Of a stretch of 64,000 nucleotides of DNA, positions 11,382 through 46,300 are shown one piece after another. Source of the stretch: Lingula anatina (Eukaryota; Animalia; Brachiopoda); the NCBI GenBank assembly GCA_051362555.1, contig CM120649.1, positions 1,054,001-1,118,000 on the forward strand. The letters are read 5' to 3'. Under the pieces are notes generated by a model that did no database searches, was not told the DNA's origin, and was given only the letters and a program-made list of their open reading frames with translations. Position 1 is the stretch's first letter. The number at the start of each line of letters is the position of its first letter. Made by a program: the position numbers and the translations under genes.

Positions 11382-11449
<68 letters not shown>

Positions 11450-11655: not shown

Positions 11656-11686
<31 letters not shown>

Positions 11687-11889: not shown

Positions 11890-11920
<31 letters not shown>

Positions 11921-13266: not shown

Positions 13267-13313
<47 letters not shown>

Positions 13314-19300: not shown

Positions 19301-22300
19301 CCTTACTATCTGTAGTAACAGTCTGATATGTAGTCAACACAATATCTTGTTGTTGTATATTATTATATTATTTATTTATTTATTTTAGTTTAAATCCATA
19401 CCTTACTATCTGTAGTAACAGTCTGATATGTAGTCAACACAATATCTTGTTGTTGTATATTATTATATTATTTATTTACTTTAGTTTAAATCCATACCTT
19501 ACTATCTGTAGTAACAGTCTGATATGTAGTCAACACAATATCCTGTTGTTGTATATTATTATATTATTTATTTATTTTAGTTTAAATCCATACCTTACTA
19601 TCTGTAGTAACAGTCTGATATGTAGTCAACACAATATCCTGTTGTTGTATATTATTATATTATTTATTTATTTTAGTTTAAATCCATACCTTACTATCTG
19701 TAGTAACAGTCTGATATGTAGTCAACACAATATCCTGTTGTTGTATATTATTATATTATTTATTTATTTTAGTTTAAATCCATACCTTACTATCTGTAGT
19801 AACAGTCTGATATGTAGTCAACACAATATCCTGTTGTTGTATATTATTATATTATTTATTTATTTTAGTTTAAATCCATACCTTACTATCTGTAGTAACA
19901 GTCTGATATGTAGTCAACACAATATCTTGTTGTTGTAGAACTTGAGCACTCTTACATCTAGAAGGTCCATAGAATACATTGATGGCAAGATGGACTCTCT
20001 CATCTACGTGGTCTTCTAGTTGGTCCTAAAGTATAAAATAGACAAATGTTTGGTGAGAAATATCTGTCTGCTGAAGAAAGTAAACACACAAAATGAGTGT
20101 AAGAACTCAAAAGGATAATAACTGTTCGTTTTGGCCAAAAAATAAATTTTCCTGGACTAAACAACAATTTTCCCATGCCAATTGTTACTGAATCCATTTC
20201 TACATTTAAAGTCAGTCCCTGATTTTTTACTAAAAGGTTTTTTTTTTGTAATAATCTCTTAAGATTGAAGTACTTAAGATTAAGAGATTATTACAGATTA
20301 TGACCATCTAGGTCACGTGGTCTGATGACAAGCTCAGATATCAGAATAATAGCTATAACTGCCATTTCTGTGAATTATTTACGTTTTTATAATTACACTA
20401 TATCTAGTGAACAATGTTTTTTCCCTGTTCCATTTTGATGCAATTTTACATAAAACTCAACAGCGAAATCACCAACAAATTTTCATTTATAGTACTGGTA
20501 ATATGGACATACAGAATATGGATAATGTGTGTGTGTGTGTGTGGGGGGGGGGGGGGGGTAATAATTACTTGATCACTTTACTAGAAATCAGTCCAATAAT
20601 AGTATTACTCCTCCAGAGTAAGATCAATTTTGATCTTAAAAGCAGAATAAGTCCCTGTTAAGACCATTTCTATTACAGTTAAGGCCACTTAAAATCATTT
20701 GTGATCTGAAATTATGGATTCAGACCATTTCAGGCACACCATGACAGCGCACCTAGAGATGGGGTGAGTTGGGTTTAAAGTTCAAGTAGTGACTTCACAA
20801 AATAACGAGCAAGCCCTACCATACCTGTGTCTTCACTGCAAGATATCTACACTGTAGTTACAGCTCTCACTGAATCCATCAACCTGAACTGACTACCTAC
20901 TCCAGAGCCTAACATCTTCACTGGTGAAAATAAAACTAAACACATTCTTAATTCATAATACATAGTGAAATGCAAAAACAAACTGCTGTGGGCTCACACG
21001 AGATGGCAACTGGGTCACTGATAAGATAACTGTTATAACTCTACTGAACACACATTCATAGTTCATTCTCTCCCACCAGTTTACTGCTGAAAAGAGATAA
21101 CTGCTCTACATAGAACAGTTCGGTACAAGCCCCCAAGATGGCTACAGCTCGCGATGACAGAGATGAAGAAGAAAGCCTACGAGCCAAAATAACTGAAAAT
21201 TTTGTCAGCTGTCCATTATGCCTTGAGGAGTACAAAGATCCGACAGATTTACCATGTAGGCATACATTTTGTAAGTGTTGTCTGAAAGACTATACTCCTG
21301 ACTTAACACCAGGAAGTAAATTCAGATGTCCTGTGTGTCAGAAAGAGACTGAAGTTCCTAAAGATGGACTTGAGGGCTTCACTCACAATTTCTACATTGA
21401 AAGCTTGCAGGACACTGTACTTCAGTCAACACATAAGAAAAAGTGCAGCTCTTGTGTTTTGTTGTCCCAAACTGAAACAGTGGCAACTTCAAAATGCATC
21501 ACCTGTCATGACTACCTATGTGACAAATGTTCTCCATTCCACTGTGGTAGCAGACTCACTAAAGATCACAGGGTACTCACTTTTCAACAACTTCACAGTA
21601 GTGAGTATCAAAAAGTAATCCAAGAACAGCAAAAGATTATCTGCCCAGAGCACAAAGGTGAGATGATACGATACTTTTGTTCACATTGCAATGTCCCCAT
21701 TTGTCGTGACTGCAAAGATCTACACCATGATGGCCACAAACTTATCTCACTTGAAAAAGCTGCAGAGATGGTAAAACCACAACTTCAAGTCAAATTCTGT
21801 GGCATGGAGAAAAAATTTGAAAAGGGTGAGAAAACAATAGATATAATTGATGAAATATTGACAACCCTCCAAGAAAATGAAACCTTAGTTCAGCAGAAGA
21901 TCAAAACTCGTGCAGCTCATCTACGTCAACTGGTAGATCAACGAGAGAAAACCTTACTACAGGAGCTTCACCAAACCACCAGCACTCTCAGAAATAATTT
22001 ACAAATTTCCCGCAAAAACTACAGTGCCACTTGCTCCTCTATCAAAACCACAACAGATGTAGTAAAGAACATCCTTCAACATGGTGCCCCCATAGATGTC
22101 CTCATGTTACAACACCAACTTGGACAGAGACTAGATGAGCTACAGTCCACTTCAGCTGTGGATGATATTCCAGAGGAACTAAAACTCACACTCACCACCA
22201 ACACAGAAGTGGACCAAGAGATATCCAGTGGGGCTGGCCTGGGGGATGTGCAGATATCTAGACAGTCAGCTTTGCCCAAGTTCAAACCACAGGCTGAATG

Positions 22301-25300
22301 TATGCTGGAGTTTGACACTGGCTGTGGGTTGACAGTGGACATTTCAGTGAGTCCATACAGGGAGTATGTTACTACCCATGGCCAGAGGAACAAGGTGAAG
22401 GTTTTTAGTTCAGATGGTACATCAAGGCAAGAGATCACACGTGTCTCAGACACACAGTTGAAATGTACAGTAGGAATCTGTCACTCTCCTGACGGAAGGA
22501 TGATTCTATCTGGTATGATCAATAACAAACTGTTCATCCTGTCACCACAGTGGGAAGTACAGCAAACTGTAGATGTCAACAACCCATGTGGTGTGGCTCT
22601 CAATAATAGCTGCACTAAGATTGCTGTGGCACAGGGTGGTGAAAAGTCTGTGAGTGTGTTCAGTATTGATATAAAAGGGAAAATAACTTTAACTGATGTG
22701 ATAAAGGACAAAGATGGGAAACAGTTGTTCAATGAACCATATAAAGTAGCATATATGAGCAATGGGTGCCTTGTTGTTAGTGATATATCACAAAAGAAAC
22801 TTCACATCCTAACCCCATCTGGTGACCCACTGTATCAGTACACAGGACCTGATAACAAGTTAGGTCGTCCCTTTGGTGTTTGTGTTGATGCATATGACAA
22901 CATACTGGTTACAGACTGTAATAACCACTGCATACACCTTGTATCCCCAGATGGGAAGTTCATCAAGTACATAGCAACCCAAGCTGATGGACTAGCTAAT
23001 CCACTGGGATGTACCATCAACCAGGATAGAGATGTGGTTGTGACTCAAGGGAATGGGAAAGTGAAAGTATTCCAATACTTAGAAAAATGACATCCTTTAC
23101 AATGATAAGAGACTGAACAATATGTACTTTTCTGACATATCTCAATGATGTAGTATACAAGATGACAAAGCATCCAAATGTAAAGATACAAAGCAAACAA
23201 GACAGCAAAGCTGTCAAATGTACTGACAAAAAGCAGAAAAGAATAATGGACAGAATAGGATATGGTCCATTCTGGTGCAATAATATGTTACACTTAACTG
23301 TAAAATCAACATCATAATTTAATTATGCCCAACGGATAATACCAATTAAAGAATAAGCATGGGTTGTTTCCCTGGTACTTATTAATGAATAGATTTTCTT
23401 TTATTTCCCTTTCCGTTTGGGTTGAATAGATAAAAGCATTGGTAAAAGTAACAATTAAACACTCATTGTTAAAGACGTCACATTTAAGCCTTTATGACAT
23501 CACCTAGTAACAAATAAACAAAACCCCCTGAAGAAAGAAAGAAACCGGTCGGGGCAAGAAAGTTGAAAGAAAGTTTATTATATATATATATATATATATA
23601 TAGTAAATTTTAATTAGTTATTTGTCTATGCCATATTGTTTGTTTAAATGTCATGTTAAAGAATTATATAGATTAAGTATTTTTTAAGAACTTTTATACG
23701 TTTGTTACACTACTAAACAATGTTTACAAATGTAGTTAATTATAAATTTATTGTTAAGAACTTAATGAACTAATTAATGTAATAACTAGCACGTTCTTAT
23801 AATTTATCTATATATCTTTGCATGCATCTTGATCTGTATGTCTATACATATAAATTCTATTATTTTTTGTTTGTTTGCAACAGGAATCATAAAAAATGTT
23901 AATGAAATGGGAAGTAAGTATTATTATAGTAACTATCCTTGGTCAATAACATAATATATATTAAAGGGTTTAATTTAACATTATCAACTTAAAATGCTTA
24001 AGTTTTACTAATAAAATGAGAAGAGTCTAACTGATAGTTTTATTGTATGATAGGGATATATAGGTAAACAAATTATAAACATCTGTTTTAGTAAAATATA
24101 TTTTGTTGCTTCATACAACATATAAATGATTATTTGTGCCTAATTTTTGACTGAATGGCAATTTATATATGTATGCTTAAACATATTAAATGGATTCATA
24201 AATTTGTACTTTAAAATAAGGTAATGATTACAAGATGGATGTAATCACATTTGATTAACCATTATTAATATTTTCAGATAGATGTATTTAAAGGACAGAA
24301 AGAGTATTAATTGTAAATTACTAGCCAGTTAATTCACAAATATATCATTTTAAATTCTAGTTATATTTACTGGAAGGAAGGAATATTATGTAATTTGACT
24401 TTATATTTCATTAATCAATTATTTTTCTTTACATATACCTGTAATGAGTACTTTCATATAAACAGAATATGAAATGATCAAACTAGAAAATCACAAACAT
24501 CCGCCAAGGCAGGAGTTTTTCGATTATTATTGATTATTGATATATTATTGATCCTGATCACCACCAAAAACTAATAATCTGTTTCTTGGCCCACTTCTAA
24601 CAGTTCCTGAAAATTTTATTAAAATCAGTCCATAACTTTTTGAATTATGTTGATGACAAACAAACAGACAAACAGGTGAAAACATTACATGTACCTCCTT
24701 GCTGGAGGTAATAACTCATCTTTGGGTAAATTTAATTAAGCATGATTTAAATAAAATGGTTTTAACTTTTGTGTTATAGAATTTATTTGGTAATAGATTA
24801 TTAAATTTTATTTGTGAAAGGTTTGAGGCTCAAAACTTATTTCAGCAGGAGATTAATTATGATAAGGTTTATTTCAGTTCAAAGCTGAGTGACTGTGGAA
24901 GTATTTTATTCACACGTACTTGAATGAAGTCAAAAGTGATGTGTTGGCATTCATTAGGTGTGTGTGAAAGTTATCTTGAGTTTCTCAGTGGAAAGTTATT
25001 TTAACTACCATCATGTAATAAATATGATTGAAATTGAATAAAGCAACCTTTTTGATTTTGAAAATGAGACAGCAGTTCTGTTGTTTTTGACACCGGCATC
25101 GCTCGGTGAAAGTACACAGCAACAACAGATGCAGGTGACAGCTATATGTGCAGACACAACTGTGTCTGTACATAAAAAAGGTAATCTTGACACATTCCTG
25201 TTACCTCAACTTAAACCATATCCAAATCTTTCACTGATGAGAAAATTACAACCTATAAATTATTTTTTCATTAATAAAATTCGAGTCGTTTAAATGATGG

Positions 25301-28300
25301 AGATTGGGACCACTGAATTTCTTAAATAATGTTTAAGAAAGCACTTACAATCCAGTTGCTGAGCACAGACAGAGGACAGACAATTAGAGTTGTTCTTGGG
25401 CCAACACAATTAGTGCGACCATCACTACTGAGGTTGTTGGCACCTGTAATAGTAAATATCATTTACAATAAGCTAAAAACTTATCTGTAACAGATTTGAA
25501 GCATTCCTTACATTAGGCTAAAAACTTATCTGTAACAGATTTTAAGCATTCCTTACATAAGGCTAAAAAAATTTAAAGGCGTACAATGCAGATAAAACAA
25601 TTATATTATAGCACAGACTGCTTAAACAGCTTAGATGTCTGGCACACCTACTGAAACTGCTAAACAAAAGTTAATTACCCCCTAGCAGTTTCATCTAAGC
25701 TGCTTAAGCTGAAAGCAATTTAGCAAGGAACCCCTCAGAGATAGATCAATCCATAGTTAGTACAACAGGGTCTGGGAATGGTCCCATATTGTCACTTACC
25801 TGGACTTTTATTTTGAATGTTCTCTTTCACGTCCACATCTGGTAGAGAATCTTCATCAATCACTGAAAGTAACATTTGAACATATGTCTTAAAACTATTC
25901 ACCATGTCAAAATTCAACACCCAGTTTAACAGATGACAATCAAGCCAGGACATTTATCATATCAAAACAGAACAATAAGGCCACTTTCTCTGTCCAATAT
26001 TTCATTTTTATTCTTTTTAAAGGGGGTGGGTGGGTTTTTCATTGACCATCAATTACCTATGGGAGCAGACACTGTGCCTTTCCTCTTCTTACCACTGGAG
26101 ACGTCAGCATCAAGATCTGGCAACTCAAGACTTGGCAGGGGTGGTAAATTTGGCAAAGGATGGACTGAAATAATGCACATATCATATAAGTAAAGCATTA
26201 TATATAGGATACATAAGTAGATCAAGCACTCAACAAGGTGGAAATGCACTTACATTCAATTTGGCTTTAAAAGAGTGGTTCTTACAACTTGGTTCATTCT
26301 ATTCTATACTCTACAATCAGCGATGAGCAGCTTTGGCTCCAAAAAAAGTCCAAAATCTGCCAGAAAACTCTCATTACCGTTGTAAGCACCCAAACCAACC
26401 GAAAAAGTCAATAACCCGCTGATAGTTTAAAAAATCTCATCCCTCTACCATACCTTTGGCACCAGGTATAAAAGGGGCACTCTTCCTCTTCCGTGACTTC
26501 TTCAAGCTGAATTCCTGCTTCACTAAGGGAGAGTTACGTGGTTTTTCCTCCTTCAGGGGGTGTGGGGATGTGGCAACTTCAGTCTCCATTCCAACACATG
26601 GGGGCACAGGAGATTCTGGTATGGCTGGTTCTGTCTTTGGCCACTTGGACTGGTCAGTTACATTGGTGGTGTGTCCACTGGACATCTCCACAGGACCTGT
26701 ACCATGCTTAATAAGTCTGGATTTGTCACCTGTGATTGTTTTGGACACACTGGACAACTGAGGCAGTGGCTGTGGTTGACCAGAAGCAATTTTCTCTGGA
26801 CGCCAGCTTGGCAGGATGGTTCTCTTGAAGGTGGTGTTGGTCAGCTGGAGGTCTGTGGACACACCTGGCTGGTTCTGGACAATGGTACCTTGACCGTTAA
26901 TGACAGGAGTGGAGTGTGTGGCCAGAGGGGCCTCGGATCTCACCCTCATATTCTCCAGTCTCACTGTTAATATAGGACCTCTGCCCTGGTGTCCAACAGG
27001 CACCAGATTCTGAGATATTACATCTGGTTTATGAACTTGTTTATTTTTCTCAGATGATGAGTCTGCCTGGCCCAGAATGGTACCGTGTTGTGGTGGTACC
27101 TTGCACTGGACATTTACTGTCAATTTTTCTGGGTCTTGGCACTCTGAATTACCATCCAAGACAGTGGTTGACTTCCTCCCACACTTGGCTACAAGAGAAT
27201 TGAAATATATTTATAAAATTGCTCAAGTTGGAGTATAATTTAGCCTAAAAAAAAAACAGTGTAAACATGTATGTTTTATTAAATGCTTTAAAATATACTG
27301 AAAGTCATTCACTATTTCACCATTGTTCTTTTCCTGACAAGTAGAAAACTTGTATGTTCCCCCAAGTTTACCTGACTTGGTAAGTATCTGACAGTGATTG
27401 TCCTTTTGTTCCACCCCTGAGTCAGTCTGGTGAAGTAGTTTCCTTATATAAGCTGTCACAAATATCTCTTCTTCATCATATCTGGCAGGCTTCTTGACGT
27501 TCAACATGAATTACATAATATTTTGTCTTTAAAATGTTTAACAAAGGAACAATTGGGTGTCATATTACTTGAAATAGAGATAATTACTGAACAAAATGTT
27601 AACCTGTAATTAAGTTTTAAAGTACAACTTGTTTCATACACATTTGCACACAATGATTACATATTTGAGTTATGCATGCAATGTACAAATTCAAATAAAC
27701 AAACAAATATATGTAATTAAAATTCAAACAATATATAAATAATTAAAATCACCTCTTGGGTCTGCTCCTGACATTATGGAATGGTGGTTTAGGTGTTGGT
27801 GCAGACTTGAATCTTCCCCTTCTCCTGGACAGCAGGCTATGTAGAGCTGACTTCCTGGACAGCAGGCTATGTAGAGCTGACTTCCTGGACAGCAGGCTAT
27901 GTAGAGCTGACTTCCTGGACAGCAGGCTATATAGAGCGGACTTCCTGCACTATTGGTCTAAGAGTTTTTACCACTCAGTAGGATGTTCAAAATTTAAGAA
28001 ATTATGACTTAAAAAATACAGTATCTGTAAAATTTACATTTTATCCCCATTGAAAAGATTATGTAATTACTGTATACAGAGGTGGTAAAGTGTTGTTAAA
28101 TTTTCCAGGAAATTTAACTTCTTGATGTAAGTGAAATGCACTTAATATCATGATCATGAAGCCAAAAAAGTACACAAGCTGTTCAAAATACTTTAATACA
28201 TTTCTAAAGTTCTTGTACAATGTTACTTTTCAAGTTTGGTACAAATCTCTTGTAAACAAAATGACCTAAATTTCCATTAACAAAGTCGAATTAGAAAAAC

Positions 28301-31300
28301 TATGTTTAATATCTTCAAAAAAATTACCAAATAATCTTTAATTGAATGTTTTATAAATGGCAAAAGTGCTATTGTCCAAAATATTAAAGCAGATGAAATT
28401 CCAAAAAACGTTGAATCCACTAAAGAAGTTCTGTTTTAATTTAATTAATTACTTTGGACATGCTTAAATTAAAAGGTAAAAGTAGTTTCGAATCCAACAA
28501 AAAACGGTATTAAAAAGTTGCAAATTTCTTAATCTATTTGCTATTATGTATTTTAAGAATTATCTAATGGGTAGCTGGTAATACATTTTAAAATTTTCTA
28601 TTGCCACGAATAAAATGACTGAATCTCACCTACTATAACCACTAAATTTTATGAGGCAAAAACAACAATTTGGCACTTTGAGTGACACCCACTTTTAAAT
28701 ATCTTATACACCTGCATCACCAACCAAGCACCTCTCAAACTGAATCAGCTGTATCATTAATGTTCTCAAAAATACAAACTTAAAAAAATAGAAAATGGAA
28801 TAATTTGATTCTAATAGTGTGAAGAAATAAAACTGGAGAATAAAACTAGAGGATCAGAGAGGCGATACCGCCTCCGAATATTGTACCACCAGCTGGAGCA
28901 AGCGCATTCGTATAGACCCCCACATACACAAAATAAGGGACACAGCCACCAGTTTTGTGCTTGACAAGCTGTAAAAATGCAATCAACAAGAATTTTTAAA
29001 CTATTGCAAAAAATATATATGGTACAATCAAATTTAAGTTCTTCATAAGGTAGGTCAAGGGTCAATTTCAAGGTCACAGTAAATTGCCAGTATATGACTT
29101 CCTATTCAAGTTCAAGAGTAACTATGGACCTATCTCTGTCAAGTTTGAAGTTAAAAGAGAAAGAAATTAGCAGAGTTCAGTTCATGATAAAAAGTAAGTC
29201 AAAGGTCAATTTCAAGGTCACACTTAGATTGCCAGTATAGGACTTCCTATTCAACTTCAATAGTAACTATGGACCTATCTCAGCCAGTTTTGGAGATAAA
29301 AGGGAAGCAAAATTTGCAAAGTTCAGTTCATGGTGAAAAGTAGGTCAAAGGTCAATTTCAAGGTCACATATAGATTGCCAGTATATGACTTCCCATTCAA
29401 GTTCAATAGTAACTATGGACCTATCTCAGCCAGTTTTGGAGATAAAAGGGAAGCAAAATTTGCAAAATTCAGTTCATGGTGAAAAGTAGGTCAAAGGTCA
29501 ATTTCAAGGTCACATTTAGATTGCCAGTATATGACTTCCTATTCAAGTTCAATAGTAACTACGGACCTATCTCTGCCAGTTTTGGAGATAAAAGGGAAGC
29601 AAAATTTGCAAAGTTCAGTTTATGGTGAAAAGTAGGTCAAAGGTCAATTTTGAGGTCACATTTAGATTGCCAGTATATGACTTCCTATTCAAGTTCAATA
29701 GTAACTACGGACCTATCTCAGCCAGTTTTGGAGATAAAAGGAAAGCAAAATTTGCAAAATTCAGTTCATGGTGTAAAGTAGGTCAAAGGTCAATTTTAAG
29801 GTCACATTTAGATTGCCAGTATATGACTTCCTTTTCAAGTTCAATAGTAACTATGGACCTATCTCTGCCAGTTTTGGAGAAAAAAGGGAAGAAAAGTTTG
29901 CAAAGTTCAGTTCATGGTGAAAAGTAGGTCAAAGGTCAATTTCAAGGTCACATTTAGATTGCCAGTATATGACTTCCTATTCAAGTTCAATAGTAACTAT
30001 GGACCTATCTCTGCCAGTTTTGGAGATAAAAGGGAAGCAAAATTTGCAAAGTTCAGTTCATGGTGAAAAGTAGGTCAAAGGTCAATTTTAAGGTCACATT
30101 TAGATTGCCAGTATATGACTTCCTATTCAACTTCAATAGTAACTATGGACCTATCTCAGCCAGTTTTGGAGATAAAAGGAAAGCAAAATTTGCAAAATTC
30201 AGTTCATGGTGTAAAGTAGGTCAAAGGTCAATTTTAAGGTCACATTTAGATTGCCAGTATATGACTTCCTATTCAAGTTCAATAGTAACTATGGACCTAT
30301 CTCTGCCAGTTTTGGAGATAAAAGGGAAGCAAAATTTGCAAAGTTCAGTTCATAGTGAAAAGTAGGTCAAAGGTCAATTTTAAGGTCACATTTAGATTGC
30401 CAGTATATGACTTCCTATTCAACTTCAATAGTAACTATGGACCTATCTCTGTCAAGTTTGAAGTTAAAAGAGAAAGAAATTAGCAGAGTTCAGTTCATGA
30501 TAAAAAGTAAGTCAAAGGTCAATTTCAAGGTCACACTTAGATTGCCAGTATAGGACTTCCTATTCAACTTCAATAGTAACTATGGACCTATCTCAGCCAG
30601 TTTTGGAGATAAAAGGGAAGCAAAATTTGCAAAGTTCAGTTCATGGTGAAAAGTAGGTCAAAGGTCAATTTCAAGGTCACATATAGATTGCCAGTATATG
30701 ACTTCCCATTCAAGTTCAATAGTAACTATGGACCTATCTCAGCCAGTTTTGGAGATAAAAGGGAAGCAAAATTTGCAAAATTCAGTTCATGGTGAAAAGT
30801 AGGTCAAAGGTCAATTTCAAGGTCACATTTAGATTGCCAGTATATGACTTCCTATTCAAGTTCAATAGTAACTACGGACCTATCTCTGCCAGTTTTGGAG
30901 ATAAAAGGGAAGCAAAATTTGCAAAGTTCAGTTTATGGTGAAAAGTAGGTCAAAGGTCAATTTTGAGGTCACATTTAGATTGCCAGTATATGACTTCCTA
31001 TTCAAGTTCAATAGTAACTACGGACCTATCTCAGCCAGTTTTGGAGATAAAAGGAAAGCAAAATTTGCAAAATTCAGTTCATGGTGTAAAGTAGGTCAAA
31101 GGTCAATTTTAAGGTCACATTTAGATTGCCAGTATATGACTTCCTTTTCAAGTTCAATAGTAACTATGGACCTATCTCTGCCAGTTTTGGAGAAAAAAGG
31201 GAAGAAAAGTTTGCAAAGTTCAGTTCATGGTGAAAAGTAGGTCAAAGGTCAATTTCAAGGTCACATTTAGATTGCCAGTATATGACTTCCTATTCAAGTT

Positions 31301-34300
31301 CAATAGTAACTATGGACCTATCTCTGCCAGTTTTGGAGATAAAAGGGAAGCAAAATTTGCAAAGTTCAGTTCATGGTGAAAAGTAGGTCAAAGGTCAATT
31401 TTAAGGTCACATTTAGATTGCCAGTATATGACTTCCTATTCAACTTCAATAGTAACTATGGACCTATCTCAGCCAGTTTTGGAGATAAAAGGAAAGCAAA
31501 ATTTGCAAAATTCAGTTCATGGTGTAAAGTAGGTCAAAGGTCAATTTTAAGGTCACATTTAGATTGCCAGTATATGACTTCCTATTCAAGTTCAATAGTA
31601 ACTATGGACCTATCTCTGCCAGTTTTGGAGATAAAAGGGAAGCAAAATTTGCAAAGTTCAGTTCATAGTGAAAAGTAGGTCAAAGGTCAATTTTAAGGTC
31701 ACATTTAGATTGCCAGTATATGACTTCCTATTCAACTTCAATAGTAACTATGGACCTATCTCTGCCAGTTTTGGAGATAAAAGGGAAGCAAATTTTGCAA
31801 AGTTCAGTTTATGGTGAAAAGTAGGTCAAAGGTCAATTTTAAGGTCACATTTAGATTGCCAGTATATGACTTCCTATTCAACTTCAATAGTAACTACGGA
31901 CCTATCTCAGCCAGTTTTGGAGATAAAAGGAAAGCAAAATTTGCAAAATTCAGTTCATGGTGAAAAGTAGGTCAAAGGTCAATTTTAATGTCACATATAG
32001 ATTGCCATTATATGACTTCCTATTCAAGTTCAATAGTAACTATGGACCTATCTCTGCCAGTTTTGGAGATAAAAAGGAAGAAAAATTTGCAAAGTTCAGT
32101 TCATGGTGAAAAGTAGGTCAAAGGTCAATTTCAAGGTCATAGTAAGATTGCCAGTATATGACTTCCTATTCAACTTCAATAGTAACTATGGACCTATCTC
32201 TGCCAGTTTTGGAGATATAAGGGACTAAATGTTATAATTTTGGAGTTACCATAATGTGCCTTAAATTTCGTACAGAAAAAATTAATTAAAATAAAGAAAA
32301 TGTCATTTTGGTCAAAATTCTTGAAATAGGAGGTGCTCTGAAGTTTCAGAAGTTCAAATTTGATGAAATAATGTCATTTTTGAACACAAGTTGTCTGCTT
32401 TGCCAAGCCTTATGTTTTATTTTTCCAGAGTTCAAAATTTATTATCCATTACCGTACTGCACATTTTGCTTTTACCACCAATATGTGCTTTTTGATACAG
32501 CGTAACTCGAAAACCGTATGGAATACAAAAAAACCGAGACCACCTTCAGTGTTGGGCTTTACATGCTCTACAAAATGCAAAAAAGAATGGGTTTCTAGCA
32601 TTAACGGTTCCCGAATTAGAGACAGTTTTCAGTTTCGGTATCTCATGGCTGCTACTCCCGTGAAAATGCACCGATTGACCCCAAATTCATGGAGATGAAA
32701 GATGACCTGAAGGGTAACACTTTCCAATAATATTATTGGTTAAGTCTGTGTGGTGTCTGAATAACAGGGCAAAAAATTTTTTTTTCGTAAAAAATTTCAT
32801 TTTTTTGAAAATTTTGGCCCATTTGACCTTGAGGTAAAGGTCAAAGGTCAAATCCAAGGGTATATTTGAAATCTACACATATGACTTTTGGAAAGTCGTC
32901 TATAGAAATTTTTCCCATAACCCCTTCCGTAGGGTAGATAATTAGCATTTAATTTTGCCATTTTTAGACAAGGGTGCATTGCAATGAGTGCCACACCCAG
33001 ACCCCAATACCGACAAAGCCCAAATTTTACGTGGAACGAGTTGAGATTATAGGTGACCTAAATCCATGAGATGGGTACGGGGGCCCTTACCGTCTAGGAG
33101 GAGAAGCGGTAACGGTAGCCATCCGGCGGAGCCAACGGAGCCGGCGGAACGATCCGGACGGGACCGAAACCATGTGTACCGCCAGCGCTAACGCTGGTGG
33201 TACAATTAATTTTGGTACTGCATTACAGACAAGGGGCTTCACAGAACCGAAAAAAATATTCTTAATGCACTACAAATTTATGTCAAGCACCATATACCTG
33301 AAGCCTAAATTGCATCATTACAAAAATGTTTTTGCACTGTTCTTTCCAAACATCTCTTTTATAACCATGCACCTAAAAACTCGGAACTTAACATAGAATA
33401 AAACCAAACTTTCTGCATGACACATTTGAAAAGCTGTCTTAAGTTTTCAGTTCTATGAAAACAAAGTTTTGATATCCGCAATGCGTGTTTCTCTTCGTTG
33501 CTCTGCTGTCTGCTTCTTCCCAAACGCTCCCTGCATCAATTTGCGTTTCTTCTCCTGCAGCTCCAACATGCGCTCTTCCACTGAATCCTTCACAACATAC
33601 TGAAATGTACGAATCAAACAAATTCTGAGACTCCATACTGGTAAGGATCTGTTGTAACAAATCTACTTTGGCTGCAGTTCAGACATTTCTTTACACTTAT
33701 TCACCAAAATTATTAAATCCATGGTGTAATCTCAACTCTATAAGATTAAGAAAATATTCAGTAATTATTTTTACAATATAAAATTTTGTTACATGGCAGT
33801 ACACTGGGAACACGTGGCCTTATGTCCCACGCGGGACGAAGAGCAATGATGATGATGACACTGGGAACACACATATTTCCATATTTTGTCACCCCTTTCT
33901 ACTATTAAGCACTTTCTCCAATTTCACACTGCCTTTCTATACTCTAAGAGGAATATAGCTCTGTTATTCAACAGACTAAGTGGAGTGGAATTCATACCAC
34001 TCCAAGTCCTTCCTCAGGAATTACACATTGTCAATGTCACCTAGCTCTGTGTCATTCTTGAGAATATTGACAGATGACATAGCCCTATCCCTGCGTAAAC
34101 TTGGTTGTAACTGGCTGTGGATGCAATCAGAACACGAGACCAACAGATCCATGGATCAAAGTGGCAGACCCACTTGAATGCTTGGCAAATAATCCCCATG
34201 AGAAATCTATTCAGTGTCTATTAGGAAATTATAGGGCAAGTGTTTAAGTGAGTCAGCCATACTTGATCTGCTGAGATCTGTTGATCACTGTTGTGAATGT

Positions 34301-37300
34301 GGCCCATTATCTTACCTTTGTGATGACGACGTCCTTGGTTTGTCCAAGACGGTGACATCTGTCAAAACATTGCTCCTCGGATGCTGGGTTCCAGGCCTGT
34401 GGAGAAATAAATAAATAAATAAATAAATAAATAAATAGATAAGAGGGTAGGCTACTGTAAAATAACCAACTTTTTAAACCTTTGTGACAGAATCACTCCA
34501 CGTCACACAGGTTTTATTATACTCCACAGAGCTAAATTATTCTGCTGAAAAAGTCTACTTGTACCATTGCAAGTGAATAATATACTGCTTGGATGTTGTA
34601 AACAAATCTTTGGCTAATATGTTTTGAACTGTTGCTGGCTACAAACACTACAGAAAATATTAACACAAGCCATATTTAAGTGTTCATTAGATGTACAGCT
34701 AATGGTAAATAGCAAAAATGTTTAAAAACTAATAACGAATAAATAATTTTTTGTGGCAAGTACTGGCCTCCTGTTTCTGTTAAAATCTGAATTTCAGAAA
34801 AAAAATAGCATTTAGTCTTAAGGAGAAGGAAGTAAAAAAAAAAAAAAACTTACCGGATCCATCAAGAAAACCCTGGAGGCAGCAGTAAGGTTAAGCCCCA
34901 TACCTCCAGCCTTCAGTGAGAGGAGGAATATTGTAGGGGCACGGGGGTCAAGGTCAGAGAACTGCTCAATGGCCTGTGTTCTCTTCGCAGCTGTCATGGT
35001 GCCATCGAGACGAGCAAACTTGAACCCAGCAGCTCTGTGGGGGAATAGTGAAATTTCTTTATGTAATTACAGTGTTTGTAAATTATAATCCTACTGGGCC
35101 CTAAGGGCAACAGGGACTGAGAATCTACTGGTCCAAAGGAAAAGTGGTTACAAACTGAACAAATTTGGAGCAAAGGCAGTATTACCCTTATTGTACATTG
35201 CATTATACAGTTGAAACAAATGACAAACAAATAGACAATATTTGTCCGATAAATTATAATAATTTTAATAAGATAAAGAAAAGTAAACATTTAACTTTGG
35301 CCCCACCCAACTTACTTGAGTGGAGTCTCTAGTACAGTGAGGAAGGAAGTGAACTGTGATACAACAATACTCTTAATGGTTGGGTCATCCTTCCTCTGCT
35401 GAATCAGGGCCTTCATCAAGGCATCCACCTATCCCTGTGTACACCTATCCCTGTGAATACCTATCCCTGTGTACACCTATCCCTGTGTACACCTATCCCT
35501 GTGTATACCTATCCCTGTGTACACCTATCCCTGTGTACACCTATCCCTGCATAGACCTATCCCTGTGTACACCTATCCCTGTGTACACCTATCCCTGTGT
35601 ACACCTATCCCTGTATACATCTATCCCTGTGTATACCTATCCCTGTGTACACCTATCCCTGTGTACATCTATCCCTGTGTATACCTATCCCTGTGTACAC
35701 CTATCTCTGTGTGTACCTATCCCTGTGTACACCTATCCCTGTGTACACCTATCCCTGTGTACACCTGATTGTAACTGTCTGTGGACGCATTCAGAACAGG
35801 GAACCAACAGAATTTCTATTACAATTAAGACCATGTAAGATCATAAGTGATATGAAATTACAGATTTAGACCATTTCAGGTACATTAGTCAGAGGCTGAC
35901 CCTGAGCTATTTTCTGACAGTCTGCCAAATTATCTTTGTTGATTCACCCTCTAATTTTGACCGTCTTCCAACATGAAAAATTGGATACCCGTCAATGAAA
36001 ACTTTTAAACCTGTCTTCGGGAAGACCCAGAAGACGGCTTAAATCCGCCCCTGTTAGTAAACATCCATGACAGCACACCTAGAGATGGTGTGAGTTAATG
36101 TTGTGTTTACAGTTTAAGTCCCTGTTTTTTTTTCTAAAAAGTTTTTTTTTTAATAATCTCTTAAGAGATTATAACAGAGTATAGCCATCTATGGAGATCA
36201 CGTGGTCTGACAAGCTCAGGTATCAGAATAATAGCTACAACTGCCGTTTTTGTGGTAAAACAGAAAATATTATATTTCTATGAGTGGTTTACAATGTTTT
36301 TTTTTTTTTTTTTTGAAACACAGATCTCACACGAAGAGTTATTATCCCTGTAATATTGCAAACAAGGCAGCAAAGCTCTCAAATATATAGACACAAGGCA
36401 GTAAATAATTATAATAGTGAACAATATTTTTTTTCTGTTTTGTTTGATGCAATTTTACATAATGCTCAACAGCAAAATCACCCACAATTTTTTATTGTGT
36501 AGTACTGGTAACAGAATATGCAACCAGGACTTAAGGAAATATGAGGAAATATGTGTGTGTGTGTGTGTGTGTTGGGGGGGGGGGGGGGGATAACTGCTTG
36601 GCCACTTTTCTAGAAATCAGTCCAATACTAGTAATAGTATTACTCCTCCAGGGTAAGATCAATTTTGATCTTAAAAGCAGAATAAGTCCATGTTAAGACC
36701 ATTTCTATTACAATTAAGGCCATGTAAGATCATTTGTGATCAGAAGTTACAAATTTAGACCATTTCTGGCATACTAGTGAACAACCATGACAGCACACCT
36801 AGAGATGGTGTGAGTTGTGTTTACAGTTCAAGTAGAGACTTCACAAGATAAAGAGCAAGTCCCACCATACCTGTGTCTTCACTGCGAGATATCTACACTG
36901 TAGTTACAGCTCTCACTGAATTCATCAACCTGAACTGACTACCTACTCCAGAGCCTAACATCTTCCCTGTGAAAATAAAACTAAACACATTCTTAATTCA
37001 TAATACATAGTAAAATGCAAAAACAAACTGCTGTGGGCTCAGACGAGATGGCAACTGGGCCACTGATAAGATAATCGTTATAACTCTGCTGAACACCCGT
37101 TCATAGTCCATTCTCTCCCACCAGTTTACTGCTGAAAAGAGATAACTGCTCTACATAGAACAGTTCGCTACATGCCCCTAAGATGGCTACAGCTCGCAAT
37201 GACAGAGATGAAGAAGAAAGCCTACGAGCCAAAATAACTGAAAATTTTGTCAGCTGTCCATTATGCCTTGAGGAGTACAAAGATCCAACAGATTTACCAT

Positions 37301-40300
37301 ATAGGCATACATTTTGTAAGTGTTGTCTGAAGACTTATATTTCAAACTCAACACCAGGAAGTAAATTCCGGTGTCCTGTGTGTCGGAAAGAGACTGAAGT
37401 TCCTAAAGATGGACTTGAGGGCTTCATTCACAATTTCTACATTGAAAGTTTGCAGGACACTGTACTTCAGTCAACACATAAGAAAAAGTGCAGATCTTGT
37501 GTTTTGTTGTCCCAAACTGAAACAGTGGCTACTTCAAAATGCATCACCTGCCATGACTACCTATGTGAGAAGTGTTCTTCATTTCACTGTGCTACCACCC
37601 TTACTAAAGATCACAGGGTACTCACTTTTCAACAACTTCACAGCAGTGAGTATCAAAAAGAAATCCAAGAGCAGCAGAAGATTATCTGCCCAGAGCACAA
37701 AGGTGAGATGATACGATACTTTTGTTCAGACTGCAATGTCCCCATTTGTCGTGACTGCAGAGATCTACACCATGATGGTCACAAACTTATCTCCCTTGAA
37801 AAAGCTGCAGAGATGGTAAAGCCACAACTTCAAGTCAAATTCTGTGGTATGGAGAAAAAAATTGAAACAGGTGAGAAAACAATAGCTAAAATTGATGAAA
37901 TATTGGCAACCTTCCAAGAAAATGAAAGCTTTGTTCAGCAGAAGATCAAAACTCGTGCAGCTCATCTACGTCAACTGGTAGATCAACGAGAGAAAATCTT
38001 ACTACAGGAGCTTCATCAAACCACCAGCACTCATAGAAATAATTTACAAATTTCCCACAAAAACTGCAGTGCCACTTGCTCCTCTATCAAAACCACAACA
38101 GATGTAGTAAAGAACATTCTTCAACATGGTGCCCCCATAGATGTCCTCATGTTACAACATCAACTTGGACAGAAACTAGATGAGCTACAGTCCACTTCAG
38201 CTGTGGATGATATTCCAGAGGAACTAAATCTCACACTCACCACCAACACAGAAGTGGACCAAGAGATATCCAGTGGGGCTGGCCTGGGGAATGTGCAGAT
38301 ATCTACACTACCAGCTTTGCCCAAGATGAAACCACAGGCTGTATGTATACTAGAGTTTGACACTGGCTGTTGGGTGCCAGGGGACATTTCAGTGAGTCCA
38401 AACAGGGAGTATGTTACTACACATGGTTGGAAGAACAAGATCAAGGTTTGTAGTTCAGATGGTACATCAAGGCAAGAGATCAGAAGTGTCTCACACACAC
38501 AGTTGAAATATCCAGCAGGGATCTGTCACTTCCCTGATGGAAGGATGGTTCTTTCTGATAGAGACAATAACAAACTGTTCATCCTGTCACCACAGTGGGA
38601 AGTACACCAAACTGTAGATGTCAACAACCCATGTGGTGTGGCTCTCAATAACAACTGCACTAAGATTGCTGTGGCACAGGGTAGCAGAGAGAAGTCTGTG
38701 AGTGTGTTCAGTATTGATATCAAAGGGGAAATAACTTTAACTGATGTGATAAAGAACAAAGATGGCAAGCAGTTGTTCAATTATCCATATAAAGTGGCAT
38801 ATATGAGCAACGGGTGTCTTGTTGTTAGTGATGAAACTCCAAACAAACTTCACATCCTAACCCCATCTGGTGACCCACTGTATCAGTACACAGGACCTGA
38901 TAACAAGTTAGGTGAACCTCGTGATGTTTGTGTTGATGCATATGACAACATACTGGTTACAGACCGTGATAACCACTGCATACACCTTGTATCCCCAGAT
39001 GGGAAGTTCATCCAGTACATAGCAACCAGAGCTGATGGACTAGCTAATCCACTGGGATGTACCATCAACCAGGATAGAGATGTGGTTGTGACTCAAGGGA
39101 ATGGGAAAGTGAAAGTATTCCAATACTTAGAAAAATGACATCCTTTACAATGATAAGAGACTGAACAATATGTACTTTTCTGACATATCTCAATGATGTA
39201 GTATACAAGATGACAAAGCATCCAAATGTAAAGATACAAAGCAAACAAGACAGCAAAGCTGTCAAATGTACTGACAAAAAGCAGAAAAGAATAATGGACA
39301 GAATAGGATATGGTCCATTCTGGTGCAATAATATGTTACACTTAACTGTAAAATCAACATCATAATTTAATTATGCCCAACGGATAATACCAATTAAAGA
39401 ATAAGCATGGGTTGTTTCCCTGGTACTTATTAATGAATAGATTTTCTTTTATTTCCCTTTCTGTTTGGGTTGAATAGATAAAAGCATTGGTAAAAGTAAC
39501 AATTAAACACTCATTGTTAAAGACGTCACATTTAAGCCTTTATGACATCACCTAGTAACAAATAAACAAAACCCCCTGAAGAAAGAAAGAAACCGGTCGG
39601 GGCAAGAAAGTTGAAAGAAAGTTTATTATATATATATATATATATATAGTAAATTTTAATTAGTTATTTGTCTATGCCATATTGTTTGTTTAAATGTCAT
39701 GTTAAAGAATTATATAGATTAAGTATTTTTTAAGAACTTTTATACGTTTGTTACACTACTAAACAATGTTTACAAATGTAGTTAATTATAAATTTATTGT
39801 TAAGAACTTAATGAACTAATTAATGTAATAACTAGCACGTTCTTATAATTTATCTATATATCTTTGCATGCATCTTGATCTGTATGTCTATACATATAAA
39901 TTCTATTATTTTTTGTTTGTTTGCAACAGGAATCATAAAAAATGTTAATGAAATGGGAAGTAAGTATTATTATAGTAACTATCCTTGGTCAATAACATAA
40001 TATATATTAAAGGGTTTAATTTAACATTATCAACTTAAAATGCTTAAGTTTTACTAATAAAATGAGAAGAGTCTAACTGATAGTTTTATTGTATGATAGG
40101 GATATATAGGTAAACAAATTATAAACATCTGTTTTAGTAAAATATATTTTGTTGCTTCATACAACATATAAATGATTATTTGTGCCTAATTTTTGACTGA
40201 ATGGCAATTTATATATGTATGCTTAAACATATTAAATGGATTCATAAATTTGTACTTTAAAATAAGGTAATGATTACAAGATGGATGTAATCACATTTGA

Positions 40301-43300
40301 TTAACCATTATTAATATTTTCAGATAGATGTATTTAAAGGACAGAAAGAGTATTAATTGTAAATTACTAGCCAGTTAATTCACAAATATATCATTTTAAA
40401 TTCTAGTTATATTTACTGGAAGGAAGGAATATTATGTAATTTGACTTTATATTTCATTAATCAATTATTTTTCTTTACATATACCTGTAATGAGTACTTT
40501 CATATAAACAGAATATGAAATGATCAAACTAGAAAATCACAAACATCCGCCAAGGCAGGAGTTTTTCGATTATTATTGATTATTGATATATTATTGATCC
40601 TGATCACCACCAAAAACTAATAATCTGTTTCTTGGCCCACTTCTAACAGTTCCTGAAAATTTTATTAAAATCAGTCCATAACTTTTTGAATTATGTTGAT
40701 GACAAACAAACAGACAAACAGGTGAAAACATTACATGTACCTCCTTGCTGGAGGTAATAACTCATCTTTGGGTAAATTTAATTAAGCATGATTTAAATAA
40801 AATGGTTTTAACTTTTGTGATATAGAATTTATTTGGTAATAGATTATTAAATTTTATTTGTGAAAGGTTTGAGGCTCAAAACTTATTTCAGCAGGAGATT
40901 AATTATGATAAGGTTTATTTCAGTTCAAAGCTGAGTGACTGTGGAAGTATTTTATTCACACGTACTTGAATGAAGTCAAAAGTGATGTGTTGGCATTCAT
41001 TAGGTGTGTGTGAAAGTTATCTTGAGTTTCTCAGTGGAAAGTTATTTTAACTACCATCATGTAATAAATATGATTGAAATTGAATAAAGCAACCTTTTTG
41101 ATTTTGAAAATGAGACAGCAGTTCTGTTGTTTTTGACACCGGCATCGCTCGGTGAAAGTACACAGCAACAACAGATGCAGGTGACAGCTATATGTGCAGA
41201 CACAACTGATGAGAAAATTACAACCTATAAATTATTTTTTCATTAATAAAATTCGAGTCGTTTAAATGATGGAGATTGGGACCACTGAATTTCTTAAATA
41301 ATGTTTAAGAAAGCACTTACAATCCAGTTGCTGAGCACAGACAGAGGACAGACAATTAGAGTTGTTCTTGGGCCAACACAATTAGTGCGACCATCACTAC
41401 TGAGGTTGTTGGCACCTGTAATAGTAAATATCATTTACAATAAGCTAAAAACTTATCTGTAACAGATTTGAAGCATTCCTTACATTAGGCTAAAAAAATT
41501 TAAAGGCGTACAATGCAGATAAAACAATTATATTATAGCACAGACTGCTTAAACAGCTTAGATGTCTGGCACACCTACTGAAACTGCTAAACAAAAGTTA
41601 ATTACCCCCTAGCAGTTTCATCTAAGCTGCTTAAGCTGAAAGCAATTTAGCAAGGAACCCCTCAGAGATAGATCGAACCATAGTTAGTACAACAGGGTCT
41701 GGGAATGGTCCCATAGTGTCACTTACCTGGACTTTTATTTTGAATGTTCTCTTTCACGTCCACATCTGGTAGAGAGTCTTCATCAATCACTGAAAGTAAC
41801 ATTTGAACATATGTCTTAAAACTATTCACCATGTCAAAATTCAACACCCAGTTTAACAGATGACAATCAAGCCAGGACATTTATCATATCAAAACAGAAC
41901 AATAAGGCCACTTTCTCTGTCCAATATTTCATTTTTATTCTTTTTAAAGGGGGTGGGTGGGTTTTTCATTGACCATCAATTACCTATGGGAGCAGACACT
42001 GTGCCTTTCCTCTTCTTACCACTGGAGACGTCAGCATCAAGATCTGGCAACTCAAGACTTGGCAGGGGTGGTAAATTTGGCAAAGGATGGACTGAAATAA
42101 TGCACATATCATGTAAGTAAAGCATTATATATAGGATACATAAGTAGATCAAGCACTCAACAAGGTGGAAATGCACTTACATTCAATTTGGCTTTAAAAG
42201 AGTGGTTCTTACAACTTGGTTCATTCTATTCTATACTCTACAATCAGCGATGAGCAGCTTTGGCTCCAAAAAAAGTCCAAAATCTGCCAGAAAACTCTCA
42301 TTACTGTTGTAAGCACCCAAACCACCCGAAAAAGTCAATAACCCGCTAATAGTTATAAAAATCTCATCCCTCTACCATACCTTTGGCACCAGGTATAAAA
42401 GGGGCACTCTTCCTCTTCCGTGACTTCTTCAAGCTGAATTCCTGCTTCACTAAGGGAGAGTTACAGGGTTTTTCCTTCTTCAAGGAGTATGGGGTTGTGG
42501 CAACTTCAGTCTCCACTCCAACACATGGGGGCACAGGAGATTCTGGTGTGGCTGGTTCTGTCTTTGGCCACTTGGACTGGTCAGTTACATTGGTGGTTTG
42601 TCCACTGGACATCTCCACAGGACCTGTACCATGCTTAATATGTCTGAATTGGTCACCTGTGATTGTTTTGGACACACTGGACAACGGAGGCAGTGGCTGT
42701 GGTTGACCAGAAGCAATTTTCTCTGGACGCCAGCTCGGCAGGACGGTTCTCTTGAAGGTGGTGTTGGTCAGCTGGAGGGTGGACACACCTGGCTGGTTCT
42801 GGATGATGGTACCTTGACCGTTAGTGACAGGGGTGGAGTGTGTGGCCACAGGGTCCTCGGATCTCACCCTGATATTCTCCAGTCTCACTGTTAATACTGG
42901 ACCTGTGCCAGGGCTTCCAACAGGCACCAGAGCCTGAGATACCAGATCTGGTTTATGAACTTCTTTATTTTTCTCAGATGATGCGTCTGCCTGGGTTGGA
43001 ATAGTACCATCTTGCCGTGGTTCCTTGAATTGGATGTTTAAAGTTGATTCTTCTGGGTCTTGGCACTCTGTATTACCTTCCAAGACAGTGGTTGACTTTC
43101 TCCCATGTTTGGCTACAAGAGAATTCAAATATGTGTTATGTGCTGTATAATTTAGGCTAATAAAAAGTGTAAACATCTATTTTTTCTATTATATGCCTTA
43201 AAACATACTTACAGTCATAAACTATTTCACTACTGTTTTTTTTTCTTGACAAATAGAAAGTTTAAATATTTCCAACAAGTTTACCTTTCTTGGTAAGTAT

Positions 43301-46300
43301 CTGACAGTGGTAATCCTTTTGTTCCACCCCTGGGTCAGTCTGGTGAATTAGTTTCCTTATATTAGCTGGCACAAATATCTCTTCTTCATCATATCTGGCA
43401 GGCTTCTTGATGTTTCTTTAAACATGAATTATATAATATTTAGTCTTATCAATGTTTAACAAAGGGACACTTGGGTGTCATATTGCTTAAATTAGAGATA
43501 ATTACTGAACAAAATGTTAACCTGTAAAAAGTTTTAAAATACAATTTGTTTCATATACATTTGAACACAGTGATTCCACATCTGAGTTACTCATGCAATG
43601 TAAAAAATCAAACAAACTAACAAATAGGTAAAATTTAAATAAATAAATAAATAAAATAACCTTTTGGGTCTGCTCTTGACATTTGGGGATGATGGTTTTG
43701 GTGCTGGTGCAGACTTGGATCTTCCTCTTCTCCCCCTGGGTTGGGCAGGCTCACGATGAGATCCACTTGATCCCTGCCCTTCAATGACATCACTATCTGC
43801 AGCCTGCATTGGTGCCAGTTTGGGGTCATCTGGTGCACAATCTGGCCTTTCTTGCACATCGGCTTCTTGCTCAGTTTCAGCAATAACCTCACCTACAGTG
43901 TCTGCTAGGCCCCCTTGTACAGGGTTTGTAGAAATTTCAGGCACAGACTGTGAGAGGCCTTCACGTACAGGGTCTGTAACAACTTTGCCATCAGGAAGTG
44001 GAACAGTTTCAGCACAGATTTCAGTGCCACCTGCAACGACTGTGCTGCTATTGCCACTGGAACCGTTCCCAGAGGTGGTAGTGCCACCAAGAGTAACTGT
44101 AGCATCCTTCACAGTGACTATATCACTACCTAAAGTAACTGAAGCACCATTTAAAGAGACAGTAGCAGTGTCCAAAGAGAAAGTATCAGCATGTGTTACA
44201 GAAGCACCATTCGAGGTTTGGGCACCATTTGAGACAGGGGCGCCATCCAAAGACACAGAAGCACCATCAAGAATGACTGCAGTGCCATTCAGGGAGACTG
44301 TAGCACCAGTAAGAGAGACTGTAGCACCAGTAAGAGAGACTGTAGCACCAGTAAGAGAGACTGTAGCACCAGTAAGAGAGACTGTAGCACCAGTAAGAGA
44401 GACGGTGGCATCTAAAGTCCGAGGTAGAGTATTACACTGCTTGTCATTATGTATTGCAACTGTGTTCATTTCAGGCGATGAGTTTTCAGAAGGCGAGTTT
44501 GAAAAAGGTTCCACATTCACCGAAGGACTGCTCTTTTTGCCTTTGCCTTTATTCTTTGATGCTGAAAAACAAAGGTTCATTTGAAATAAATTGCTGAGAG
44601 CAAGAGTCAAATATGAGAAGTCATTTAGTTTTTAACTATTTTAGCAAAAATTCATCATCACTTACATAACATAACTTATAATATCCGTCTTTTTCTTGAC
44701 AAAAGGTCACAATCTGTAAAATTCCTGATACATGACTGTTTTTATTCACTAGTTTCCAAATTATAATGAAACCGAAGACTAACAATAAGGTAGAAATATT
44801 CTTAAAATTTGTCTCATTGCATTATAAAGTGGCAGCATACCTTTGGTATTCTTTGTGCTCTCAGTGGAACTGTCGGAGAGGTACATTATTTTATCCTCAC
44901 TGTCTGATGTGTACTTCACAGGTTTACCTACATTTCTGAAATATATCATTTTATTAGGATACAAAATTAAAGAAACAATTTGAGACACACTGTCAAATTT
45001 AAACTCCAAATGTTTACCAACAAATTCAAATAACAAAGGATAGCTATCTCAGAAATCATTTGAGTACAAAACACTTCAATGATTTCTAAATCAACACTAT
45101 TGACATCACCATATATCATATAGCCATTTTACCTGGATTAAAACATAAAATCAAAACTACCTTCTTGGTCGTGACCTCGCATTAGAAGTGCCCTGTGGTT
45201 GGACGGAACCTTTCGGTTTAAACTCAGGGTCCTCTTTTAGTATCATCACTGTACTGGACGCCTTCTGACTCTCCTCTTCTATTAGGGCACAAAAACAAAA
45301 AAATCTTCTCATCAACTTTTTCTTTCACCATTAAAGACTTTTTAAGGTATACACTTTTTTAAATTTGGCCTATTTATCTTTTTAAAAGTTAAAAAATCTA
45401 ACTTGTGACTGTAACTTATAAGATTTTGTTGAAATGTCAGAAAGTACATTGTTGTGAGTGCCTGCAACCCTTAAATCTTGAAAAGAAAAAAAAAGAGGAG
45501 CTTGAAATTTTCAAGTAATAACCTTATGTACAGGTGTTACTGTGTCTGTACATAAAAAGTGTCTGGTATACCTGAGCTGTCTTCATCAGACACACAATCA
45601 TCAGAGAGAATCTCCTCATCCTCAGAACTTCCCTCAGGTACCAGAGTCACTTCATCAGTTTTACTAGAACTGGTGGCCATGCCACGCATCTTCAGCTTTT
45701 TCTTGATTGTATTCTTCTCTGTCTTGTACCCCTTGCTCCTGTTGGCTTGGATTCTGGCATCTTTTTCAAGCTGGGGAGATAATTACAGACTTAAGATCAG
45801 CCGACCCAAAAGACATCTACACAGATAAGAATTTAAGATACAATGTAAAACATTGAAAGAAATTCACCTATTGTCTTTAAACAAGTTTCAGAACCTACTG
45901 GTCATCTGTGATCTGTCAATCCAGCATTTTCACAGGATCACAACTCAAAAATGAGCCTCATACATTAAGAGATTGAAGATATAAGCGTAATTTGCACAGA
46001 ACCTAGGCTAAGAAATAAACACTACATGTGAACTCAATATTTTATTCTATATAAATGAGAAATTTCAAAGATGTTAACATCACCACAGAAAAATAAACAG
46101 TAAATGCCTCAAAACAATTTTTAGAGCAATTTACTAGGGAATTATACATGAAATATAACAATATATATCTTCTATTAAGTGAAAAAAATTAAGCTGATTG
46201 CATTTTAAAGGGCTTAAAGAAACTGCCAAAGCAGTCTTGGCAAGTTGCCAACAGATTGGCCGAGTTGGCAGATTTAAAGAGTGATATAAAACAGACTATG

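Follow-up and report, generated by a model that had tools for sequence, protein, structure and literature searches.

A hypervariable and probably positively selected propeller face in a multicopy RING-B-box-NHL family of the brachiopod Lingula anatina

We analyzed a 64,000-nucleotide stretch of the Lingula anatina genome (assembly GCA_051362555.1, contig CM120649.1, positions 1,054,001 to 1,118,000 of the forward strand; hereafter the window), which carries a TRIM gene in three plus-strand copies, A, B and C, and we compared the NHL propellers of these copies with each other and with their relatives. Each copy consists of a single exon. TRIM B (21138..23090) is an open reading frame (ORF) of 650 residues that encodes a RING, two B-boxes, a spacer of coiled-coil length and an NHL propeller (22284..23087). 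TRIM C (37183..39138; 651 residues) has the same layout, with its six-bladed NHL propeller at 38329..39135. TRIM A (3..764) is cut by the window start to its NHL part and differs from B at 2 of 762 nucleotides. Residue numbering begins after Met throughout. A Pfam scan of B and C detected RING, B-box and NHL domains, with zf-C3HC4 above the cut-off in both proteins and the B-box PF00643 at residues 164-204; the first Cys/His-rich B-box, at about residues 100-145, was recognised by eye. For the region after the B-boxes, the family profile aligned to the B-box/coiled-coil chains of TRIM3, TRIM28 and TRIM5. No SPRY domain was matched in B or C, and filamin (PF00630) had no match in B or C (E-value 0.01) or in 13 Lingula relatives; it was found in the database proteins P0014-P0021.

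The RING of TRIM B keeps all eight zinc ligands. In TRIM C the third ligand Cys is replaced by Tyr (37300..37302, plus strand), at a site that is Cys in TRIM B and in 9/9 RefSeq rows covering it; every read listed has G at position 37301, the letter of the Cys codon. TRIM C is thus likely impaired as a ligase by this substitution, and it may be a ligase-impaired, decoy or decaying copy. Two small clusters of B/C changes were also noted upstream of the propeller, one in the RING loop (21285-21305 in B and the matching C site; DYTPDL/TYISNS) and one in B-box 1 (21546-21554 in B and the matching C site; GSR/ATT, with GTK in other paralogs). These variants recur across different paralogs, and no site there has five states.

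We modeled the NHL domain of TRIM C with AlphaFold2 from a 31-row alignment and obtained a six-bladed propeller with a predicted local distance difference test score (pLDDT) of 96.5. The search for relatives returned mostly long proteins with several NHL stretches, and six single-stretch matches (P0030, P0044, P0070, P0073, P0097 and P0123) were added to the alignment for folding. By Foldseek the closest structures were the NHL domains of TRIM2 and TRIM3 (template modelling (TM) scores 0.84-0.87; 0.85 for TRIM2), followed by Thin, LIN41 (0.82) and Brat. The top face of NHL propellers has been defined as the b-c and d-a loops (PMC4015489). Combining this definition with the strand assignment of the model placed the variable loops on the top face, as the first-pass annotation had proposed; the loop and strand classes follow the strand assignment of the model and not its coordinates. 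As a contact set we used the RNA-contact residues of LIN41 (PMC5908797), of which 11 of the 14 named were placed on chain 6fpt and the other 3 by the 47-residue repeat period. Each of them mapped to P-2, P-1, P+1, D+1 or D+2 of its blade, so that the propeller has 30 contact-type positions.

Of the 77 amino-acid differences between TRIM B and TRIM C, the NHL domain contains 40 and residues 1-381 the other 37. Within the propeller, 27/83 positions differ in the top-face loops, 4/55 in the bottom loops and 8/121 in the strands. The first-pass annotation had described the copies as differing mainly in NHL surface loops: by density this was borne out, but by count it was not, because 27 of the 77 differences lie in top loops and 37 precede the domain. 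Its nine listed loop differences were all recovered in the alignment at the given places, each in a d-a or b-c loop or an adjoining strand end of the model, and the strand cores were nearly identical, as it had stated. At the contact-type positions of blades 1-5 the contrast was sharper, with 16/25 differing versus 24/209 other NHL positions (Fisher p=2e-8). In TRIM C coordinates (plus strand), the variable sites comprise the d-a loop (WVPG) and b-c loop (GWK) of blade 1 (38368..38433), the d-a (YPA) and b-c (DRD) loops of blade 2 (38509..38565), the P+1 site and b-c loop (GSR, with a one-codon indel) of blade 3 (38632..38688), the P-1 site (Y/E) and b-c loop (ETPN) of blade 4 (38782..38844), and the d-a (EPRD) and b-c (RD) loops of blade 5 (38914..38970), where nucleotide variants were read in three sequencing runs. 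The P+1 site of blade 3 has eight states among paralogs and is identical in B and C. The blade 6 loops (39043..39102, plus strand) vary among paralogs and are identical in A, B and C because they lie inside a homogenised tract (39030..41208) that is 99.8% identical to 22982-25162 in the B unit and 656-2836 in the A unit; the identity of the three copies at this level starts near codon 616 and runs on over 2.1 kb. A recent conversion or unequal crossover would account for the tract, and blade 6 was left out of the B/C rate tests on its account.

The same face varies across the wider family. Every one of the 13 best among 22 database matches was a named Lingula anatina protein, and 11 had 74-90% identity. 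With the cluster members and two short proteins we counted 16 RefSeq records at 69-90% identity, some of which may be alleles. These relatives are spread over at least 15 scaffolds of different length, and the array described by the first-pass annotation is therefore not solely local. Variability counts were made without P0011 and more distant paralogs, and trees without P0025 (partial); neither used P0013 or P0026. Among 14 RefSeq paralogs, with B and C set aside, sites with at least five states numbered 23 in the top loops (18 of them contact positions), none in strands or bottom loops and one among the 342 N-terminal sites tested. Mapped on the predicted structure, 23 of the 24 such sites were thus on the top face and not scattered. 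A second Lingula subfamily of three genes, with NHL domains 36-38% identical to that of C, repeats the pattern of the B/C family: 17-22 of its 30 contact positions differ, versus 29-31 of 181 framework positions and 9-12% of the N-terminal part.

Full DNA was limited to B, C and part of A, and the tests are pairwise or simulation-based and not codon site-model likelihoods. By the method of Nei and Gojobori (NG86), the ratio of nonsynonymous to synonymous divergence (dN/dS) between B and C was 0.51 for the gene and 0.68 for the NHL domain; the NHL-wide value was not taken as decisive, since it blends 30 fast sites with a frame that is conserved. At contact positions dN was 0.54-0.60 against a gene dS of 0.09-0.12, a 4.4- to 6.4-fold excess of replacement over gene-wide silent change (p 9e-7 to 2e-9). 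For whole top loops, dN was 1.9-2.8 times the gene-wide dS (p 0.005 to 2e-5), while the local dN/dS of 1.06-1.64 was not significant, so that a loop ratio above 1, on which the first-pass annotation had staked its proposal, held against the gene-wide rate and stayed short of significance locally. The top-loop signal is concentrated in the five positions per blade. With gene dS as the yardstick, the ratio was 0.28-0.53 in bottom loops, strands and the N-terminus, and the local dN/dS of the non-top NHL and N-terminal parts was 0.33-0.59.

Such an excess could in principle arise without selection, from local hypermutation, from mutations of several nucleotides at once, from micro-conversion by distant donors or from errors in the assembly. 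In keeping with this, 9 of 17 differing contact codons carry two or three nucleotide changes, the proportion of synonymous differences in contact codons is 0.20-0.26, segments of the proteins have different closest relatives and a homogenised tract is present. We nevertheless consider an artefact highly improbable. When each changed codon was counted once, a count chosen to blunt multi-nucleotide mutations, the excess was still significant (p=6e-5 at a dS of 0.124 and 1.4e-3 at its upper 95% limit of 0.166). Synonymous divergence within three codons of contact sites was not raised (0.12 versus 0.09 elsewhere), and two non-coding flanks differ by 7% and 14%. The same codons also vary in reads and contigs of three other runs and in RefSeq proteins, and in the codon of R579 the reads carry several variants at positions 1-2 and none at the third.

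Reads were analyzed over blade 5 with a complete 39-row variant table covering 99 bases in three runs of three studies; an earlier mapping was not used for selection because it was dominated by a 3' repeat. In the three runs, contact codons had a diversity of 0.27-0.35 at their positions 1-2, compared with 0.05-0.14 at four-fold framework sites and 0.001-0.02 at framework positions 1-2. When neutral codon evolution was simulated on a 15-sequence tree, the mean reached the observed 5.2 states in 0/200 runs for a dS(B,C) of at most 0.16 and in at most 1/200 at 0.2. Together, the pairwise, simulation, read and second-subfamily tests, which are partly independent of one another, back the diversifying selection that the first-pass annotation had proposed for the top-face loops, and we regard such selection as very probable.

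The paralogs are also mosaic, in that the closest relative shifts along the protein. P0003, for example, is nearest to B and P0007 in its RING, to P0004 and P0024 in its coiled coil, and to B and P0023 in blades 3-4. Segment exchange among copies would explain this arrangement. Distance at contact sites is saturated and barely follows framework distance (Spearman 0.16, p=0.11): the contact difference is 0.56-0.67 at any framework distance, among copies 10-20% apart.

RNA runs of three studies contain family reads that cover the TRIM ORF. In run X20 the depth over the ORF was 45-113, against about 4 or less within the 400 bases upstream, a stretch that DNA contigs do cover; no splice joints within the ORF were listed for the RNA runs. 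A short, very high-copy repeat lies shortly after the stop codon (39243-39330) and also downstream of A and B; it is abundant in the RNA runs with many different flanks and is possibly a short interspersed nuclear element (SINE) or a miniature inverted-repeat transposable element (MITE) in 3' untranslated regions.

We propose that this multicopy Lingula family of RING-B-box-B-box-NHL proteins comprises variable, target-recognising proteins of the ubiquitin-ligase type, most likely serving intracellular defence, a reading to which we assign a probability of roughly 0.6. From the sequence features, the propeller top face would grip the target and each copy likely grips a different one; judging from the RING, the gripped target is likely tagged with ubiquitin. 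On the pattern of other TRIM proteins, the coiled coil would dimerise so that two propellers could bind a repetitive or multivalent target, and clustering would activate the RING, with the ubiquitylated target then degraded or signaling. New specificities would arise through duplication, point mutation at contact positions and exchange of segments between copies. An immune role of the family is plausible by analogy with TRIM5 and the finTRIMs.

Several observations weigh against this reading, and some of them would suit another one, in which the top loops of redundant young duplicates drift freely (omega about 1) under relaxed constraint. The dN/dS over the whole NHL domain is 0.68. The strictly local test of contact dN against contact dS was not significant (p 0.07-0.30), although with only 15-20 synonymous sites it has low power. 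At a dS(B,C) of 0.25 the simulations reached the observed mean in 10-66 of 200 runs, and with a framework dN/dS of 0.15, 29 of 100 neutral runs reached the paralog pattern; the blade 5 read diversity at framework positions, set against that at four-fold sites, suggests a low framework ratio there. A family tree much longer than the calibrated one would accordingly leave neutrality standing. When the contact-codon read diversity was compared with four-fold sites alone (10 versus 9 sites), p was 0.035-0.08. The contact set was fixed after the paralog alignment had been inspected, though its definition comes from LIN41. Private changes occur in both B and C at sites that are otherwise invariant, the RING Cys to Tyr of C among them, and fit relaxed constraint on young copies. 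None of the 107 blade 5 reads in X20 reached 99% identity to C; they derive from other copies, so that the expression seen is that of the family rather than of B or C themselves. The first mates that cover the ORF in run X14 were all on the plus strand, which would be antisense RNA under the commonest stranded protocol, the polarity of the library being uncalibrated; run X17 had both strands. Drift, however, cannot raise replacement above dS, and the contact dN is 4-6 times the gene dS. Moreover, the bottom loops, which are connecting loops too, are conserved (4/55 differ; mean 1.6 states), and the same contact positions vary in the second subfamily. We therefore consider relaxed constraint improbable.

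The first-pass annotation had likened the face to the RNA-binding surfaces of Brat and LIN41, and this part of its proposal did not hold. At the equivalents of the LIN41 basic pocket (R564, R581, R611, K628, R676, R707, R752 and R770), K or R occurred in 0-5 of 15-16 sequences per site, and in none at the equivalents of R581, R707 and R770. The net charge of the top loops (K+R minus D+E) spans -6 to +4, and aromatic residues occupy 2-8 of up to 30 contact sites per copy. A fixed RNA ligand is thus unlikely, and since no basic pocket is conserved, a protein or glycan is a likelier target than an RNA backbone; Brat-like reading of bases by the face is possible. A related alternative accepts that the selection is real and holds that the targets are endogenous: proteins of transposons or retroelements, factors in germline conflict, markers of self and non-self, or, as for Brat versus LIN41, different sets of mRNAs. 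The signal in the sequences cannot distinguish kinds of target, aromatic residues are frequent at contact sites, and from one subfamily to another the NHL top face has evolved RNA-reading surfaces that are unrelated (PMC5908797). The lack of a conserved basic pocket speaks against it, and the saturating contact change among closely related copies fits an arms race better than stable regulation. On balance we hold endogenous targets to be unlikely.

Known TRIM-NHL proteins (class C-VII: TRIM2, TRIM3, TRIM71/LIN-41, TRIM32/Thin, Brat and Mei-P26) share with the Lingula family the RING, the B-box and the six-bladed NHL domain at the C-terminal end of the chain, which also ends in the same way, with TM-scores of 0.81-0.87 to the NHL domains of TRIM2, TRIM3, Thin, LIN41 and Brat. 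The Lingula proteins differ from them in having no filamin match, two B-boxes, a single exon, many copies, only 15-24% NHL identity and a hypervariable top face. Marin's classification places RING/B-box/NHL proteins in subfamily C (PMC3503706); by architecture the Lingula family is TRIM-NHL, and with neither filamin nor a basic pocket it is not of the TRIM2/3 or TRIM71 subfamily. Group 1 TRIMs have been characterised as conserved genes in one-to-one correspondence, with a mean Ka/Ks (the equivalent of dN/dS) of 0.13 (PMC2533329), and in primate TRIM2 two selected sites were reported, both outside its domains (PMC3845644). TRIM56 resembles the Lingula proteins in its RING, two B-boxes, coiled coil and NHL-like domain, the last of which is used in its antiviral activity (PMC11768893), and several of the RefSeq relatives are auto-named TRIM56-like. 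It differs in being one human gene with a disordered linker and RNA binding, and no report of a hypervariable face in TRIM56 was found.

In evolutionary pattern the family parallels TRIM5-alpha and the fish finTRIM, btr and hltr families, in which the loops that bind ligands at the C-terminal end are hypervariable, recombining and under positive selection (PMC3137616). The shared feature is a multigene expansion with positive selection on ligand-binding loops, which here comes from pairwise and simulation tests; the difference is that TRIM5 and the finTRIMs use a PRY-SPRY beta-sandwich (RBCC-B30.2), whereas the variable module in Lingula is an NHL propeller. This PRY-SPRY type has been described as absent from invertebrates (PMC2533329). 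Invertebrate Death/TRADD-N proteins likewise show lineage-specific expansions in marine invertebrates, and their highly variable beta-propellers have been proposed to recognise invaders (PMC8195603). They differ in carrying WD40 propellers on DED/TRADD-N heads and not on RING-B-box TRIMs, and the parts of that account covered here contain no codon-level or face-level test. The main text of the Lingula genome paper, in the part covered, mentions neither NHL nor tripartite proteins, and its supplementary domain tables may list the family (PMC4595640). No report of selected TRIM-NHL propellers in invertebrates was found in the literature, with subscription papers not covered. A paper on Lingula immune genes may describe this expansion.

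TRIM B lies antisense in a phase-0 intron (20026..25348, minus strand) between the ...LSNWI and DQLEDH... exons of an HLTF/Rad5-type helicase with HIRAN, SNF2, RING and helicase C domains. Around TRIM C, a further copy of this helicase contributes HIRAN, motif I, motif Ia and helicase-C exons (33456..51162, minus strand). The tandem unit consists of part of the helicase with a nested TRIM. The central helicase exons (10251-20060) had no homolog in 33-42 kb except a 43-nucleotide match, and the unit around TRIM C is without them. The sole copy with a HIRAN 5' end is without the motif Ia-to-RING exons in its own unit (33456-51162 and 5393-27210, minus strand). A whole helicase would need a splice of about 21 kb to the exon at 20025 in the next unit, or would lie outside the window.

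The helicase region is rich in repeats. A 96-bp tandem array of 37.9 copies (16299-19937) has a unit made up of the 3' end of a helicase exon and its splice donor, so that the donor site is repeated about 38 times, and helicase exon pieces near the RING are tandemly repeated at 11269-12019 and 10464-10812 (units of 101-113 bp and 45 bp). A 146-bp satellite of 21.8 copies lies in an apparent inserted element (29050-32224), and a shorter copy (14631-14936, at 14.4-15.7 kb) has flanks in common with that element. The large, low-complexity helicase exons and their introns differ by 9-18% between units (42367-44631 versus 26440-27800), with a sharp tract boundary near 26.4/42.4 kb next to sequence that is about 100% identical between units. 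Also within helicase introns (46800-50020) are a pair of 600-bp inverted repeats (46847-47425 and 49235-49845; 71% identity) and a 153-residue frame on both strands that is uncharacterised (49297-49758).

Arms-race evolution of TRIM proteins has been described for vertebrate PRY-SPRY proteins, and TRIM-NHL proteins are viewed as conserved regulators of RNA in development. That a brachiopod has an NHL face which is selected and hypervariable suggests that invertebrates arrived at the strategy of TRIM5 through a different fold. Clusters of similar layout with 50-111 members occur in molluscs and echinoderms; they are a lead only, through which the test of the face could extend to farmed bivalves. 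More tentatively, and with doubt, we raise a germline repertoire of intracellular, antibody-like ubiquitin ligases in lophotrochozoans and perhaps marine invertebrates broadly, with twelve top-face loops resembling complementarity-determining regions and diversified by positive selection and blade-swapping gene conversion; if true, it would be the invertebrate counterpart of the vertebrate TRIM5/finTRIM restriction factors. With thirty positions defined, the search for ligands and tests by loop swapping become direct, and the Lingula propeller family may offer a natural scaffold for re-targetable ubiquitin (E3) ligases.

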